Shown one piece after another: positions 33,001-42,000 of a stretch of DNA of 64,000 bases (the first letter of the stretch is position 1; every line of letters starts with the position of its first letter). This DNA comes from Oceanispirochaeta sp. (lineage in GTDB: Bacteria; Spirochaetota; Spirochaetia; DSM-2461): the NCBI GenBank assembly GCA_963663385.2, contig CAXXXD010000003.1:64001-128000 (forward strand). The letters run 5' to 3'. Position numbers: made by a program.

Positions 33001-36000
33001 TCAGGGGCTGATGACATACAAGATAATATTTGAACCTGATGCCTTTGTTCTGGGTGGTGGATTTATGGACAGATTTTTCCCCTGGTACGTGAAGCTGCAT
33101 AATCCGTCTGTTACTTTTTCTGAATTCTACAGGAACAGGATAAATCTGATCAGGTCTGAAATAAATGGTGATATAGCTGTTCTGGGCGCAGCTGCCCTGA
33201 TGGAATCGCAATTACTTAAACAAAAAGGAAACTGAAATGAATAGAGAAATCCAGCTGGGAACAATTAAATTCTGCCTGGCAGATGATTATGATGAAATGA
33301 GCAGGAGTGCGGCACAGATTCTTATCGAACAGGTCAACCGCAGAGCGGATTCTCTGCTCACTATAGCGACCGGTTCGACTCCCGAAGGTCTGTACAGGCA
33401 TTTCTGCCGCAGAGTCCGGGAAGAGAAGCTGAATATTGAGACTCTCCGTTTTCATAAACTGGATGAGTGGGCCGCTCTGAAAAAAGGAGATCCCGCCAGC
33501 TGCGATAGTTTTATCCGGGAGTTCCTGATTGATCCCCTCCATATTCCTGAGGACAGGTACTGGGGGGTAAACAGCGAGGCTGAAGATCCTGAAGGAGAAT
33601 GTATGCGTATTGCAGAACGGCTGCAGCGTGAAGGACCTTCGGATCTTTGCATTTTAGGTCTAGGGGCAAACGGTCATCTGGGTTTGAATGAACCGGATAC
33701 TTTTCTGTCTCCCTATACGCATATGATTGATTTAAGTGAGCAATCCAAATCTCATACCATGCTGAGTAGTGCTGAGTCGAAGGTTTCCCGCGGAATGACC
33801 ACAGGGATGGCTGAAATCCTACAGGCCGGGCAGATCCTGTTTCTTGTCAGCGGTGAACATAAATCCGGGCAATTCAAAAGGTTCATGTCCGGAAAGGTCA
33901 GCACGGAATTCCCGGCATCATTCCTGTGGCTTCATCCCCATGTAACATGTGTCTGCGATAGGGCTGCCGCATCATTGGTGGAGTGGGAGACCTGTTGAAT
34001 GCGTAAGGTTCAAAATCAGAAAGAGATGAAATTGAATAATCTCGTCAATATTCTTGATTACCTTAAAAAAAACGATATTGCGGTTAAATCGGTTCTGGCC
34101 AGGGAACTGGGGCTGAGTGTAGTAACCATTACCAGGATCTGTGATGATCTGGCAGAGGCCGGGATCCTTGAGTACACCGGGGAGAGAGAGTCGACGGGTG
34201 GACGTAAACCTGTAGGGGTTTGTCTGATTCCAGATTCCAGAGTGATAATCGCTCTGGATCTGAGTGAAAAGGATCAGGCATATCTCGGGGTTATGAACAT
34301 GGCTTATGAAGAAGTCGCTTCGGAGGTTGTCCGGATTTCGGACAGATGGAATCTGAATGATTTTCTGCAGGCCCTTAAAGGGAAATTGGAGGCATTGCAG
34401 GAACTGCAGATGACCGTAATCTTGTTATTATCGGCTGTTGCGAACAGTTCTATCAGTACTGGATTAAAGAGGATCAGATTATTCAGTAATTATTTTATCA
34501 GATTGGTTTCTGATAAATTAAGGAGGATTATATGTTAAGAAAAATGTGTTTACCCGTAATGATGGTATTGCTGGTAAGTGGAACTCTATTTGCCGGCGGG
34601 CAGAAAGAAGCAGCCGATGGACAGGTTAAACTGACTGTTCTGGCGCCCTGGGCAGATCAGGAGCTGGAATCGTTTATGCCGGTTCTTACGGCATATGAAG
34701 AGGCTAATCCGGGAGTGACAATTGAGTACAGAACTGGTAAACCGGAAGATACGGCTACCATTCTGGCCGGACAGTTCGCCGTTAAACGGACTCCGGCTGA
34801 TCTGATTGATACATCTTTTTCCTGGTATATCCGGGAACAGGGTGAAAAGGGGCATCTGATGGATGTCTCAGGGCTTGTTTCCGATGCAGATTTTCTTCCC
34901 GGTGCACTGGATATGGTAAAAGTCAGCGGTGTTCCCTATGGGGCTCCCAGTGTGGGCGGTGTTACAATTACTGAGTACCGTAAGTCTTTCTTCAGGGAGA
35001 AGAATCTTCCCGATCCTGCTTCCCTCGGCAGCTGGGATGAGTACCTGGCATTACTGGATAAAATCCAGCTTATTCCGGGAGTAGACGGTGCCATAGGCAG
35101 CGGCGGTGGTGTAGGCTGGACATTCACCAGCATTATTGAAACCTATATTATTACTTTCGGCGGGGTGGAAATGCACAAGGCTCTGACCGAAGGGACGATG
35201 AAGTGGACCGATCCTTCAGTGCGGAATATTTTTGTGGAAAGACTTCTGCCCATGCTGCAGAAGGGATATTTCGGTGAACCCGATGAATTCGATGCTGTTC
35301 TGAAAGCCATGTGGAATGGCAAGCACGGGATGTATGTGGGGGACAGTACGGATAACCTTATGCTGTCACCTGCCGAAGACCGGGGTGTTTTCCTTCTTCC
35401 CGGACAGAAAGGCACAATACTATGGAACGATTTCTGGTTCGCCCCTAAATATTCTGAAAATCCTGAAGAAGCACAGAAGCTGTTCACGTTCCTGGCAACG
35501 GAAGGGCAGGTCATGCAGATCAAGGGCGGAGGGCGAATAGCTACTTATGCCAAAGTACCTGTGGATGCTTACCCTGCTTCTGAAAGGGAAGTTTTCTCCG
35601 TAATCCGGAATGCAGCCGTACGGCCCGATATGGATGATACGATTGGTGGGAAATTTCAGTCTGTTATCTGGGACCAGCTCGGGCTTATCTGGTCAAAACC
35701 GGATGTAACGACTCTTGATAGAGTTCTTGATGAGATACAGAAAGCCTCTGATGATACTTTAGATAAATAAAAGTATAGCCGGGCTGATAAAACAGCCCGG
35801 GATTCTATACAGGTGGTAATTATGAAAAAAAGAATTTCAAGGGATACGGTTATTCTGATAGCGCCCTCATTGATCCTGGTTGCGGTATTCCTTGTATATC
35901 CCATGTTCAGCAGTATCGGTATGAGTTTTTTTTCCGATTCCAATGAGTTTGCAGGACTTAAAAATTATATTGATGTATTTCAGGACAGCCGGATAATCAA

Positions 36001-39000: not shown

Positions 39001-42000
39001 CTGAAAATTATTATCATCGGAGCGGGGAGCCGCGAATTCAGCAGGGGACTGATCCATGATCTTTTTCTGGAAGAGGATCTGTTTAAGGGTAGAGAAGTTA
39101 CCCTGGGACTATGTGATATTGATGAGGATGCTCTCAAAGTAATGACGGGTTATGCCGAAAGGGTTAACGCATTGTTCCGGAATCCCCTCAAAATAGAATC
39201 CTCAATCGACAGGACAAAAGTTTTGGAAGGGGCGGATTATGTTCTTGTTGCCGTTGAACAGAGCAGGATGGATCTGTGGGAACAGGATTTCAGGGTTCCC
39301 CAGGCATTCGGTTTCAAACAGGTCTATGGGGAAAACGGGGGACCGGGGGCCCTGTTTCATACCCTGAGGAACTATAACATCTATTTTCCCATCCTTGAGG
39401 ACATAGAGAAGATCTGTCCGGATGCATTGATCATCAATTTCACCAATCCCGAAGCCCGTATCCTTACGGCGATACTGAGGCACACTAAACTGAAAGCCAT
39501 CGGTCTGTGCCACGGTTTTTACGATTTTTATAACTTCATAGCAAAGGTTTTCGACCGCCCCTATGAAGAGTTTGATATCCGTACGGCCGGTATGAACCAT
39601 CTCTTTACTTTTTATAGAATTGAAGAGAAGGGCAGCGGCCGGGATATGATTCCCCTGCTGAAGCAAAAGCTGAAGGAGCAGCCCGAGCTGCTGCCCCCTC
39701 TGTCTCGTTATGTCTGGGAAAACTTCGGAGTGATCGGTATTGATTCGGATCATCATATAGGTGAGTATTTTTCCTATGCCCATGATTTTACGGGATTGCA
39801 GTGGGAGTTCGGTATTGAGAAACGCAGGATACTGCAGGATAAAAGATTTGTTGATTCCAACGTTGCCTTTCAGGCCTGGCGTTACAATGTGGATGTGGCG
39901 GAATATCTTGACGGTTCCTATGGCAGAAAGATTAACGATCAGCTGGAAGGCCGGGCAGAGCTGTCTCCGGGTGATATTGTTTCTTCCGGTGAACTGGCTG
40001 TGCCTGTTATTGCCGATATCGTTCTGGACAGAAAACGCTGGCGGGCAGCGGTTAATGTACTGAATACGGACGGGTATATTGTGAATCTGGATTCTGATGC
40101 CTGTATTGAAGTGCCGGCTGTAGTGGATAAGGAGGGAGTCCACCCGGAAAGAATCGGATCTCTGGATGAAGGACTGGCCGCTCAGATCAGACTTCAGAAC
40201 TCCATACAGAAAATCATATCCGATGCCTGGATGACAAAATCGAGAAAGCTGCTGCTCCAGGCCCTGCTGCTTGATCCTGTTGTGGACTCAGCTGTTAATG
40301 CAGAGAAAATGCTGGACTATATGCTGGATCTTCAGAAGGATTACATCCCCGAATTCAACTGATTGAAATCAGGATCGCCCCTTGTTCACGGCGTTTATGG
40401 AAAGATCGAAAACAACCTGATCCGGCACCAGGTTTCGGACGGTCAGATCACCGCCGTGCTTGCGGGCGATCATTCTGGTTATGGAGAGTCCCAGTCCGCT
40501 GCCGCCTCTATCCTGGGTTTTTCTCCAGTAACGGGTAAAAAGATGAGGTAGATCCTCTTTCGCAATCTGTCCCTTGTTTCTGACTTCGATGATATCGCAT
40601 CCGGTTTTCTCATGGCTGAATATGCTAATATCGATAACGAGGCCTGTTCCGTAAAGGATGGCATTCTGGATAAGGTTGCTTATCCCTCTCATCAGAAGGA
40701 TCGGATCCCCCCATATTTCCTTTCTTTCAATATCCGTATAGATCACTATTCCCTTCTCTTCGGCCAGAGGAATAAAACGGTCTAAAAGAGGGGTTATCAG
40801 ATCTCTTTCTGTCTGCAGGAACTGGCAGTTATGGCTGCCCAGGGTATCCTCCAGCTTATATAAAACTGACATATCGTCTATAAGCTGGTTCAGGTAGCCT
40901 AACTCTCTGTAAAAGTGATCAAAACGCTCTTCAGACAGTTTCATGGCTCCCAGTTCCACTGCTTCCAGTTGATTATACAGGCCCGCTATGGGACCTTTCA
41001 GGTCGTGGGTCAGTTCCTGAAGTCTGTGGTTTGCCCGTTCATCCTTTAAAATCAGCTGTCTTTGCAGATTTTCGGCAGCCTTTACTATCTGCTGTGATTC
41101 CCTGATTCTGGCGTCGGGAAACTGTATATCCCTCTTCCCGTCTGCCAGTTGAGAAATCGTATCGGATATTTTTCCGATGTTGACTGTCAGCTTTCTGGAT
41201 CCCAGATAGGCTGCTCCGATTATCAGGGGGAACGTGATGATCAGAACAAGAAGGATAAGATACATGGATTGTTTAATTATCTGAAAAAGGGATGGTTTTT
41301 CGATAAGTTTTTCAGGGGAGGAGAAAACCTCTATATAAGCAGGATCAATACCTTCAATCCCAAGGGAGTGCAATTCCCGGCCCTGACGGGACAACCGTTT
41401 TTCATCCATGCCGGGAGGGATCTCTCCCTTCTCCTGGAGAATATTGTAATCCCAGTCGTAAATCCGGATAAAGGAAACCACGGACAGTATATTGTCCAGA
41501 AAAAAAGTATACTGTTTTTCGGGGATACTCTCAAATGTCCACTCTTCACCGTATCCTCTTAAAGCTATTTGAATTTTGGCTATATCCGATTCTTCCTCTT
41601 TCTCGAGAATGCTGTGCATCAGAAACCGGATAGATATTGTACTGACTCCGGCAAACAGAATAAGATTGAACGTTAATAACAGCATAAAAAACGTGAACAG
41701 TCTGGTAAAGGCATTATGCATCGTGGGTTACTCCGGTAAAACGGAATCCGAATCCCCTGACCGCTTCAATCCATTCGGGACTGTTCAGTTTGTTCCGGAT
41801 ATTTTTTATATGGGAATCGATAGTTTTCAGGCTTTTTTCATCCGAGAGATACCAGAGGGATTTCTGAATCTGTTCCCTGGAGAGTATGGCTCCGTCATGG
41901 GAAATCAGGCTGTTTAAAATCTCCCACTCCGTAGGGGTCAGTTTAACAGGTTCATTATTAAGCTTTACCTTGTGATTGTCCGTATTTATTTCCAGCAGGT

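Follow-up and report, generated by a model that had tools for sequence, protein, structure and literature searches.

A divergent MttB-superfamily protein encoded in a conserved sugar ABC transporter and family-4 glycosidase operon of Oceanispirochaeta sp.

In the window, a stretch of 64,000 nucleotides that we number from its first letter, a tightly packed unit of eight plus-strand genes lies behind one promoter-like site (32280-32308). The features are as follows.

32280..32308, plus strand: promoter-like site, TTGACA-17 nt-TAATAT, with 10 of 12 consensus matches, ahead of the ROK gene that comes first in the operon
32336..33235, plus strand: ROK-family sugar kinase, 299 aa, no HTH domain (Pfam ROK, E 2e-42)
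33237..33998, plus strand: AgaI/NagB-like hexosamine-6-phosphate deaminase/isomerase, 253 aa (Pfam Glucosamine_iso, E 1e-19, over threshold)
33999..34538, plus strand: truncated ROK/NagC-type regulator, 179 aa (HTH_24; confined to the HTH and the beginning of the ROK domain)
34532..35770, plus strand: extracellular solute-binding protein of a sugar-type (CUT1-like) ABC transporter (SBP_bac_1, E 3e-28)
35779..35800, no strand assigned: G+C-rich hairpin between the binding-protein and permease 1 genes, 8-pair stem with 7 G-C pairs
35813..36700, plus strand: ABC transporter permease 1 (BPD_transp_1, E 3e-19; nearest NCBIfam models GlcT and UgpA, 88 bits, under cut-off)
36697..37551, plus strand: ABC transporter permease 2 (BPD_transp_1, E 1e-15; nearest NCBIfam models GlcU, 105 bits, and MalG)
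37564..38979, plus strand: MttB-superfamily TIM-barrel protein, 471 aa, non-pyrrolysine, of a divergent clade (Pfam MTTB, structure model, clade tree)
38992..40362, plus strand: family-4 glycoside hydrolase (GH4), 456 aa (Glyco_hydro_4, E 2e-36; Glyco_hydro_4C, E 2e-30)

The gaps are 1, 0 and -7 nt from the kinase gene through the deaminase and regulator genes to the binding-protein gene, and 42, -4, 12 and 12 nt from there through the two permease genes and the MttB-like gene to the GH4 gene. The five plus-strand ORFs from the binding protein onwards lie where a preliminary description had placed them, and Pfam bears out its family calls (SBP_bac_1, BPD_transp_1 twice, MTTB, and Glyco_hydro_4 with Glyco_hydro_4C). 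That description had the operon start at the binding protein and count five genes; instead it has eight, the ROK, AgaI/NagB-like and HTH genes being packed directly 5'. The promoter-like site is the best of nine in the region 31900-40900 and is a consensus match only, shuffles of the region being expected to give 14.1 such sites against the nine found. Among the ORFs of the operon there is no gene for the N-deacetylase NagA, for a methyl-acceptor enzyme or for an ABC transporter ATPase.

The SBP_bac_1 protein and the two BPD_transp_1 permeases identify a CUT1-type importer, the ATPase of which may be shared. The nearest solved relatives of the binding protein are weak matches, the chitin-oligosaccharide binder NagB2 (E 5e-12) and AcbH, and its orthologues hold the same position in related loci at 58-62% identity. 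The GH4 protein has an intact reading frame with both GH4 domains and contains GAGS, NFTNPE and GLCHG, which we take to be GH4 motifs. Its nearest NCBIfam model is the alpha-galactosidase subfamily PRK15076 (262 bits, cut-off 486), and a search of solved structures gave no close relative.

For the ROK kinase, the top NCBIfam models are allose kinase and glucokinase (111-112 bits, all far under the cut-offs), and an orthologue occupies the same slot at five other loci (L118, L011, L012, L013 and L020). The deaminase homologue scores 261.3 bits against the galactosamine-6-phosphate isomerase (AgaI) model, with a cut-off of 271, and 151-165 bits against the NagB models, with cut-offs of 237-326; in the loci of relatives its slot is filled by proteins of 40-48% identity. 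The truncated regulator matches positions 37-140 of the 399 in NagC. A same-genus genome (G409) has an HTH plus a ROK domain in this slot, and a ROK regulator of 389-418 aa is present at Sphaerochaeta loci. The presence in the operon of both a ROK kinase and a hexosamine-6-phosphate deaminase homologue suggests a pathway for an amino sugar, not one for glycosides in general. The earlier proposal of an imported-glycoside pathway thus stands in its link to the sugar transporter and GH4, but not in the generic nature of the glycoside.

The protein encoded between permease 2 and GH4 belongs to the MttB superfamily as a divergent member, and its predicted structure has the TIM-barrel fold of MttB and MtgB. 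Its membership, already claimed in the preliminary description, is borne out by Pfam MTTB (PF06253, 74.1 bits with a cut-off of 25, residues 13-443 aligning to positions 34-475 of the 500 in the profile), by the clade profile, which matches MttB (7xcl, E 7e-29) and MtgB (9yce, E 4e-21), and by a Foldseek search with the AlphaFold model (pLDDT 85, pTM 0.85), in which the ten top PDB matches were all MttB, MtgB or 4YYC (E 2e-22 to 3e-18, TM 0.69-0.73). Equally, the claimed absence of pyrrolysine agrees with a 471-aa ORF free of internal stops and with L307 aligning to Pyl334. Twenty alignment columns, including D100, R107, D113, E243, D269, D314 and S349, are conserved both in the clade (n = 28) and in other MttB homologues (n = 32, no characterised enzyme among them), and merely six columns conserved in the latter are replaced in the clade. 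Nineteen invariant positions are specific to the clade (W93, C151, R290 and Q328 among them), and extra aromatics (W93, W303, Y305 and W312) surround the loop that bears pyrrolysine in MttB. The substrate loops are peculiar to this protein.

In the tree, the protein falls within a monophyletic clade of 35 clusters, the number of homologous clusters given previously (E<=1e-3) and reproduced exactly here, which is borne on a long stem branch and divides into a close (46-83% identity) and a distant subclade (37-40%). We compared neighbourhoods in 25 fetched loci and the same-genus genome, a set independent of the earlier one, and the conserved gene order described before was seen again. GH4 lies directly 3' of the MttB-like gene in 9 of 13 distinct close-subclade places, with sugar permeases directly 5' in seven of these, and the ROK and AgaI genes are found upstream in six of the nine close-subclade places whose upstream flank reaches 5 kb or more. 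In the same-genus genome the eight genes all recur in unchanged order (39-66% identity), and in the organism's own family the two genomes out of 38 that carry this GH4 subfamily are also the two that carry the MttB-like gene. The link to transporter and GH4, already put forward as conserved, spans Spirochaetota, KSB3 and Clostridia/Aerophobetes-type contigs. Distant relatives had been said to lack these neighbours, which is true below about 35% identity but not at 37-40%, where GH4 and sugar permeases still adjoin. Also next to the gene in the distant subclade are a canonical MttB paralogue (Pfam 316 bits; 245 bits to MtgB) and a zinc alcohol dehydrogenase; in 6 of 9 places the clade member comes straight after the paralogue, and one such locus ends with an MtaA-like gene. 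The GH4 subfamily is far wider than the MttB-like clade, numbering 1308 proteins at E<=1e-60 where the clade has 35 clusters, and most of these relatives fall outside the MttB-like context. Hence the MttB-like enzyme seems to be an accessory to a broader GH4 route and not an obligate partner of GH4.

A corrinoid protein gene was found beside a clade member in none of 22 places with flanks of up to 10 kb, whereas in another Spirochaetota family ordinary MttB homologues have one at 7 of 24 loci within a flank of just 1.5 kb; such a neighbour is customary in the superfamily, though not required. The genome of the window encodes a single small corrinoid protein that bears DxHxxG (best NCBIfam model MtgC, 209 bits). 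It exists, together with a RACo-type activase, at 249-253 kb of the same contig (C3) as previously reported, about 147 kb from the MttB-like gene. RACo is encoded in 8 of 8 genomes holding the clade and in 28 of 151 (19%) of a Sphaerochaeta-family sample, a contrast that overstates independence because the clade-bearing genomes are few and partly related. In five genomes (G000, G409 and G486-G488) the clade member is the sole MTTB-family gene. Inside the genus, all 10 of the other genomes have RACo but just one of those 10 has the MttB-like gene; with no co-variation between them, the corrinoid system serves other enzymes. Neither acetyl-CoA synthase nor a dedicated pterin-binding methyltransferase was found in the genome.

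From this context we infer that the MttB-like protein acts on the imported compound, and we put at about even chances that it is a corrinoid-dependent, substrate-side demethylase that acts on a methylated amino sugar or aglycone through a shared corrinoid protein encoded at a distance, and that is dedicated to an imported amino-sugar alpha-glycoside pathway. In the order that we would propose, the glycoside would be imported by the CUT1-type transporter and cleaved by GH4, and the MttB-like enzyme would then move an N-methyl group, from the released hexosamine or a methylammonium aglycone, onto Co(I) of the single MtgC-type corrinoid protein, presumably kept reduced by the adjoining RACo. The ROK kinase would phosphorylate the unmasked hexosamine, and the AgaI/NagB-like enzyme would deaminate the product to a keto-sugar phosphate for glycolysis. 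The MttB-like enzyme would thus stand in for NagA, the N-deacetylase of the GlcNAc pathway. Its family and fold, the core residues, the conserved context, the tandem with canonical MttB and the co-occurrence with RACo count for this reading, as does a precedent in Ruegeria, where MtgBCD has one shared corrinoid core for several methyl donors according to PMC12478193. Against it count the distance of the corrinoid protein, the lack of RACo co-variation in the genus, the long stem branch, the loss of the betaine-binding residues of MtgB, the operon's lack of an acceptor enzyme and the lack of any natural methylated amino-sugar glycoside that could be named as the substrate.

Several of these points would fit a repurposed barrel, which would keep the MttB scaffold alone and perform another, corrinoid-free step on the sugar, for instance isomerisation, epimerisation, elimination or the loss of a different substituent. 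We consider this rather unlikely, even though the 0 of 22 corrinoid neighbours against 7 of 24, the long stem with its 19 clade-specific invariant positions, the aromatics round the equivalent of the pyrrolysine loop, as in sugar-binding sites, and the RACo and corrinoid protein still carried by genus members without the MttB-like gene all favour it. The superfamily core argues otherwise, with 20 conserved positions kept and just six lost, as do the tandem of the distant subclade with a canonical paralogue and the finding of RACo in all eight clade genomes but in 19% of one family sample. Moreover, the invariant residues contain no amidohydrolase-type metal-binding His cluster, and literature searches turned up no superfamily member with a non-methyltransferase activity.

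It is improbable that the protein is a conventional quaternary-amine methyltransferase that serves a betaine- or choline-type osmolyte, leaves the glycoside and its products alone, and shares the regulation of the sugar operon because the two substrates reach the cell at the same time, as they might in algal or animal material. In favour of this, PMC13080624 and PMC8604678 describe every characterised non-pyrrolysine member of the superfamily as acting on quaternary amines; R301, next in position to the carboxylate-binding Arg of MtgB, is invariant in the close subclade; and other MttB homologues, too, commonly have the pair D345-E346. Yet the adjacency persists over three phyla-level groups despite divergence to 37% identity, the module is acquired and lost as a single piece, the sole transporter at the loci is of sugar type with none of betaine type, and the protein has not retained the aromatics by which MtgB binds its quaternary amine. 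That the protein has no catalytic role and instead senses a ligand, or is a structural partner to the GH4 enzyme or the transporter, is very improbable: the truncated regulator of the window leaves room for another sensing route, but column identity averages 62% over the clade, 52 positions are invariant and many of these are polar, and the protein keeps its full length and, in the model, the barrel fold, with no DNA-binding or signalling domain in Pfam. If the demethylase reading is true, it suggests that some anaerobic bacteria take methyl groups off a sugar-linked compound by vitamin-B12 chemistry. We found no paper linking MttB to glycosides, consistent with the earlier claim that this substrate class is not known for the superfamily.

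Among known systems, the best structural and profile match is MttB, the pyrrolysine-dependent trimethylamine methyltransferase of Methanosarcina barkeri (7XCL; MttC complex 7XCN; TM 0.73, E 7e-29), with which the MttB-like protein has in common a W-x-C motif before the active-site loop. A true MttB was rejected, as there is no in-frame UAG, L307 takes the pyrrolysine position and TIGR02369 gives 101.6 bits against a cut-off of 525. The Gly110-Thr111 loop of MttB, which hydrogen-bonds the corrin ring according to PMC9842639, falls within an insertion without a counterpart in the clade profile. MtgB, the glycine betaine:corrinoid methyltransferase of Desulfitobacterium hafniense (2QNE, 9YCE), is alike in being a non-pyrrolysine TIM barrel (TM 0.69-0.71) with Leu at the pyrrolysine position and the P-D-x-Q-A and S-x-E motifs; it differs in identity (about 18-19%), and the MttB-like protein stands apart in its sugar-catabolism context and in never having a corrinoid protein as a neighbour. 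An MtgB-type glycine betaine methyltransferase was likewise rejected: in a profile alignment of sequences only, without superposed coordinates, the binding motif of Y97 and F356 (cation-pi) and R312 and H348 (carboxylate) is not preserved, Y97 lying in a loop or insertion without a counterpart in the clade, F356 aligning with the invariant D345, H348 with K/H337, and R312 with position 302, beside R301, which is kept solely in the close subclade.

The quaternary-amine demethylases of Eubacterium limosum (MtcB, MtpB, MtyB and the choline enzyme) belong to the same superfamily and follow a three-component logic of substrate methyltransferase, corrinoid protein and second methyltransferase, plus an ATP-dependent activase; they differ in taking free quaternary amines as substrates and in having their genes in methyltransferase clusters. 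The GH4 of the operon resembles MelA/AglA (alpha-galactosidase/alpha-glucosidase) in its two GH4 domains and NAD-binding Gly motif, and departs from them in its low score to the alpha-galactosidase model (262 bits against 486) and its lack of a close solved relative. The NagK-NagA-NagB route for N-acetylglucosamine uses a ROK-type kinase and a NagB-family deaminase, the 2-amino group being freed before deamination. The operon is like this route in its ROK-type kinase and putative NagB-family deaminase and unlike it in lacking NagA, with the MttB-like protein proposed for the slot of N-substituent removal and a GH4 glycosidase and ABC importer added.

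We listed the open reading frames over window positions 30000-46000 and scanned them against Pfam and NCBIfam. The five plus-strand genes named in the preliminary description, for a binding protein, two permeases, an MttB-like protein and a family-4 glycoside hydrolase (GH4), were all present, with successive gaps of 42, -4, 12 and 12 nt. The operon is longer than had been stated, with three further plus-strand genes upstream at gaps of 1, 0 and -7 nt.

Predicted operon, in window coordinates
32280 (start): promoter-like site, TTGACA-17 nt-TAATAT
32336-33235, plus strand: ROK protein, 299 aa, without an HTH domain
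33237-33998, plus strand: NagB-family protein, 253 aa; best NCBIfam model AgaI (galactosamine-6-phosphate isomerase), 261.3 bits against a cut-off of 271
33999-34538, plus strand: regulator remnant, 179 aa, matching NagC positions 1-140 only
34532-35770, plus strand: binding protein of the SBP_bac_1 type (Pfam)
35813-36700, plus strand: BPD_transp_1 permease 1 (Pfam)
36697-37551, plus strand: BPD_transp_1 permease 2 (Pfam)
37564-38979, plus strand: MTTB-family (MttB-like) protein, 471 aa; Pfam 74.1 bits, cut-off 25
38992-40362, plus strand: GH4 enzyme (Pfam)

As the ROK protein has no HTH domain, we consider it a kinase and not a regulator. The 179-aa remnant consists of an HTH and the first part of a ROK domain only, and given its truncation the operon may be deregulated in this genome. 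The promoter-like site, the best of the region, falls in 32122-32335, the sole sizeable noncoding gap, and on the 3' side a histidine kinase and a response regulator (Pfam) lie convergently on the opposite strand. Based on the upstream packing, the promoter-like site and the convergent downstream genes, 32280-40362 was taken as one predicted eight-gene unit. Two other genes nearby are one for a P-type ATPase with two heavy-metal-associated domains directly 5' (29638-32121), which has no bearing on the finding, and one for a 511-aa protein further 3' (43878-45413, minus strand) that joins a FliM domain (28-218) to a FliG middle-domain match (392-461), a pairing unusual for a flagellar switch protein.

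We compared this organization across 7 loci from species genomes, 18 from metagenomes and the region of G409, the sole same-genus genome with the gene, mapping all operon proteins by tblastn. Loci L013 and L022, from the same 110,122-base contig, and the near-identical L020 and L021 were each counted once; L017 (27% identity) was set aside as outgroup, and L034 (34%; transglutaminase and MoxR neighbors) and L035 (a 196-residue partial match adjoining GH95) were left out. The close subclade (46-83% identity to the MttB-like protein) then comprised 13 distinct places, the window included, and the distant subclade (37-40%) 9. GH4 lies directly 3' on the same strand at 9 of the 13 close-subclade places (window, L118, L011, L012, L013, L015, L019, L020 and L023); it is missing despite flanking sequence in L014, L018 and L024, and the flank of L025 extends for only about 300 nt. 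Sugar permeases are found directly 5' at 7 of the 13. For the others, L015, L023 and L024 have no flank on that side, L018 carries Opp-type ATPases and L025 a GH38, and L013 has ROK-AgaI directly 5' and, 3.6 kb beyond, another GH4-transporter set. Of the 9 close-subclade places with an upstream flank of 5 kb or more, 6 have ROK and AgaI genes upstream. In G409 the same eight genes follow one another as they do in the window, at 39-66% identity, the slot of the remnant being filled by a full-length ROK regulator (HTH plus ROK domain). In the KSB3 locus L019 the operon lacks ROK and AgaI, and a NagB-family gene and a DegT-type sugar aminotransferase lie 2.5-5 kb 3' on the other strand. These belong to a second transporter locus (L019:13939-17536, minus strand; NagB-family, DegT/DnrJ/EryC1 aminotransferase and ceramidase-like genes), another amino-sugar theme beside the MttB-like operon.

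The distant subclade has GH4 in the locus at 4 of 9 places (two copies each in L016 and L027), CUT1 permeases 5' at 3, a zinc alcohol dehydrogenase beside the gene at 5 and a canonical MTTB paralogue directly 5' at 6 (Pfam 316 bits; 245 bits to the glycine betaine:corrinoid methyltransferase MtgB). Down to 37% identity the association with GH4 and sugar uptake is thus kept, and it was seen in Spirochaetota, KSB3 and contigs labelled Clostridia or Aerophobetes. In subsurface and Clostridia-labelled contigs (L027:276-7714 and L016:230-13386), two to three MTTB paralogues alternate with the GH4 pair and with genes for a zinc alcohol dehydrogenase and a ROK regulator; such runs of paralogues could point to successive demethylations. 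L016 terminates with an MtaA-like URO-D gene. Of 38 genomes from the window's own family, the same 2 carry both the GH4 subfamily and the MttB-like gene, so that the module is gained or lost as a whole. The GH4 subfamily is far wider (1308 proteins at E<=1e-60 among 8000 candidates scored, with named members in Planctomycetota, Lentisphaeria, Poribacteria and others), so that the MttB-like gene looks like an add-on to a more general GH4 route. The observation we started from is borne out, and extended.

A word-indexed search returned exactly the 35 homologous clusters reported before, with scores falling from 327 bits at 39% identity to 115 bits at 27%, and one distant-subclade cluster contains a protein named as Candidatus Aerophobetes. 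When 28 clade members were placed in one tree with 32 other MttB homologues from the fetched loci, the clade came out monophyletic, with a long stem and two subclades. The equivalent of the pyrrolysine loop, P-R-x-W-G-Y-L-L, is invariant in the close subclade and differs in the distant one, which suggests different substrates for the two. The picture of an isolated clade is tempered by an exhaustive HMMER search (3211 proteins at E<=1e-3), where 50%-identity representatives form a continuum from 375 to 230 bits, many of them, roughly 100, with a [W/Y/F]-C-L-N-D motif. No close orthologue was found among 400 genomes of the phylum, the best matches being at most 31% identical and all from one family, and in the 151-genome Sphaerochaeta-family sample only the one already known genome carries one. 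A homologue from another Spirochaetota family (G127:C62:2063-3448, L059) has one in-frame TAG that may encode pyrrolysine.

The superfamily membership of the protein is supported. A profile of 22 clade members matches Methanosarcina barkeri MttB, the pyrrolysine trimethylamine methyltransferase (E 7e-29), as well as MtgB of D. hafniense (E 4e-21). A Protein Atlas search brought nothing further, all 30 of its matches being MTTB clusters. The AlphaFold model (pLDDT 85, pTM 0.85) has MttB, MtgB or the Sinorhizobium homologue 4YYC as its ten best PDB matches (TM 0.69-0.73), followed by MtmB and radical-SAM barrels at TM <0.5. Trimethylamine methyltransferase identity is ruled out, as the reading frame has no in-frame stop, Leu307 aligns to pyrrolysine 334 of MttB and the protein reaches 101.6 bits with the trimethylamine equivalog model, whose cut-off is 525.

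Import, glycoside cleavage, phosphorylation and, with the putative hexosamine-6-phosphate deaminase, deamination are all provided for by the operon, which has no enzyme freeing the amino group. In the GlcNAc route that step belongs to NagA, and the MttB-like protein would fill NagA's slot. Considering this position together with the family's chemistry, the removal of methyl from a positively charged nitrogen, we propose an N-demethylation, acting on the hexosamine released by GH4 or on a methylammonium aglycone, with the methyl group passing to a distant corrinoid protein. The genome contains no acetyl-CoA synthase, and its pterin-binding domains are confined to a DHPS-like protein and MetH, the latter adjoined by MTHFR; the final acceptor may thus be a thiol, through an MtaA-like enzyme, or the methionine cycle. 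We give about an even chance to the imported compound, or a product of it, being demethylated in a corrinoid-dependent way; an N-methyl hexosamine as the specific substrate we consider unlikely.

The earlier prediction of a role on an imported glycoside, or after its cleavage by GH4, is plausible and supported in part, with one clear counterpoint: none of the 22 clade places has a corrinoid protein in the locus, which counts against corrinoid dependence. A corrinoid protein is present at the locus of the archaeal outgroup L017, and lies within only 1.5 kb at 7 of 24 loci of ordinary MttB homologues (25-31% to the query) from another Spirochaetota family. The genus also counts against dependence, as the corrinoid activase RACo is found in all 10 other genomes and the MttB-like gene in 1 of the 10; being universal there, RACo is uninformative as a within-genus marker. 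A 1:1 complex prediction for the MttB-like and corrinoid proteins, run without controls, gave no verdict, with a score of 0.09 against a mark of 0.32. In MttB-MttC it is chiefly the other subunit of the dimer that holds the corrinoid protein (PMC9842639), for which reason a 1:1 prediction may be the wrong test.

Other observations favor corrinoid dependence. A clade member is the sole MTTB-family gene in the window's genome, in G409 and in three Sphaerochaeta genomes. The window's genome also has one small two-domain corrinoid protein with a DxHxxG motif, 215 aa from the conserved start; its annotated-length reading frame (269 aa) probably starts at Met55. The best NCBIfam model is MtgC (209 bits), and the methyltransferase-cognate corrinoid subfamily scores 195 bits against a cut-off of 215. 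Its gene sits in a minus-strand cluster with RACo, a PocR/AraC regulator and an aldose 1-epimerase (C3:248002-253321; L010:6002-11321) that contains no methyltransferase, and G409 carries the same cluster. RACo is present in 8 of 8 clade-bearing genomes (G000, the window's own, G409, G486-G490 and G641), against backgrounds of 28/151 in the Sphaerochaeta-family sample, 21/38 in the window's own family and 1/14 in control genomes, and the small corrinoid protein in 5 of 5 genomes tested (G486-G490); the clade genomes being few and partly related, these counts are suggestive and not a test. The Sphaerochaeta clusters add an MtaA/CmuA-type methyltransferase, CobW and a fragment like the MetH reactivation domain. 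In G487 (L092:8337-15474) and G488 (L093:8330-15422) they hold the corrinoid protein, RACo, PocR/AraC, an MtaA/CmuA-like protein of 448-497 aa and CobW, together with a protein of 226 aa that matches the final part of that domain. In the window's genome the MtaA-like/CobW pair sits elsewhere (C2:68.6-71.1 kb), and in a Clostridia-labelled genome the corrinoid protein adjoins a pterin-binding methyltransferase. A barrel repurposed for corrinoid-independent work is unlikely, and is the strongest of the alternatives.

To our knowledge, all characterized superfamily members act on trimethylamine or free quaternary amines, and the protein could be an ordinary quaternary-amine enzyme merely co-regulated with the operon. 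In MtgB, glycine betaine is bound by Y97, F356, R312 and H348 (PMC13080624). In our profile alignment these residues are not retained in the clade: Y97 is inside an insertion with no clade counterpart, F356 corresponds to invariant D345, H348 to K/H337, and R312 falls one position past R301. We consider this second alternative improbable. Two candidate clade traits were dropped: D345-E346 as a specific swap for F356, since D and E are common there in other MttB homologues in a wider alignment, and an active-site loop deletion seen against MttB and MtgB and absent against nearer homologues. Across the 28 and 32 sequences, 20 columns are conserved in clade and others alike (G33, D100, R107, D113, M176, P194, G226, P230, E243, D269, D314, G332, F336, G340, S349, T398, F412, W420, A432 and I458), 6 conserved in the others are replaced in the clade and 19 are invariant in the clade alone. 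A noncatalytic role strikes us as highly improbable.

Corrinoid-dependent demethylation may extend beyond this operon. A URO-D family search of the window's genome gave 29 matches, and we surveyed 12 regions. One holds the MtaA/CmuA-type gene with CobW and the remaining 11 hold 15 divergent paralogues (e.g., C2:515-529 kb, L108; C3:793-806 kb, L114; C3:297-311 kb, L107; C4:689-706 kb, L109). Three paralogues were scanned against NCBIfam, where they match MtaA/CmuA and methylcobalamin:CoM methyltransferase best, and not HemE. The H-x-C motif, which we take to be the MtaA zinc site, is kept in 10 of 14 aligned own-genome paralogues. The divergent paralogues adjoin sugar-type transporters (ABC or TRAP) or regulators of the AraC, LacI or GntR type in 9 or more of the 11 regions, in orders such as SBP-permease-permease-FGGY kinase-URO-D-URO-D and AraC-URO-D-AraC-rhamnose isomerase. 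This pattern suggests that the single corrinoid protein serves many sugar-linked methyltransferases, and is the basis for a hub-and-spoke reading: a hub of one MtgC-type corrinoid protein, RACo, the PocR/AraC regulator and the MtaA/CmuA-like methyltransferase paired with CobW would serve substrate-specific methyltransferases dispersed across sugar-utilization loci. Among the spokes of the window's genome, its single MttB-like enzyme would handle an N-methylated amino sugar or aglycone, and O-methyl sugars would fall to the divergent MtaA-like URO-D paralogues, about two dozen in number. Hub and spokes taken jointly, as an oxygen-free demethylation of methylated sugars in this bacterium and Sphaerochaeta-type relatives, remain a tentative proposal that we rate as fairly unlikely.

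The MttB superfamily has been studied for methane formation and gut trimethylamine turnover, and a clade tied to glycoside or amino-sugar catabolism would bring it a new substrate class. In the open-access literature searched we found no paper in which glycosides or the demethylation of sugars are connected with an MttB homologue or with a corrinoid system of any kind, and no enzyme system for corrinoid-dependent sugar demethylation in anoxic settings. Our proposal would indicate corrinoid-dependent stripping of sugar methyl decorations in anoxic marine sediments and mats, possibly as part of a wider theme of such demethylation, and the operon offers a compact, testable set of parts in its binding protein, GH4, MttB-like enzyme, kinase and deaminase. 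A shared corrinoid core serving several donors has a precedent in MtgBCD (PMC12478193). If true, the hub-and-spoke arrangement would extend both methyltransferase superfamilies to carbohydrates, and would be an anaerobic match for the demethylation of methylated algal sugars that depends on oxygen.
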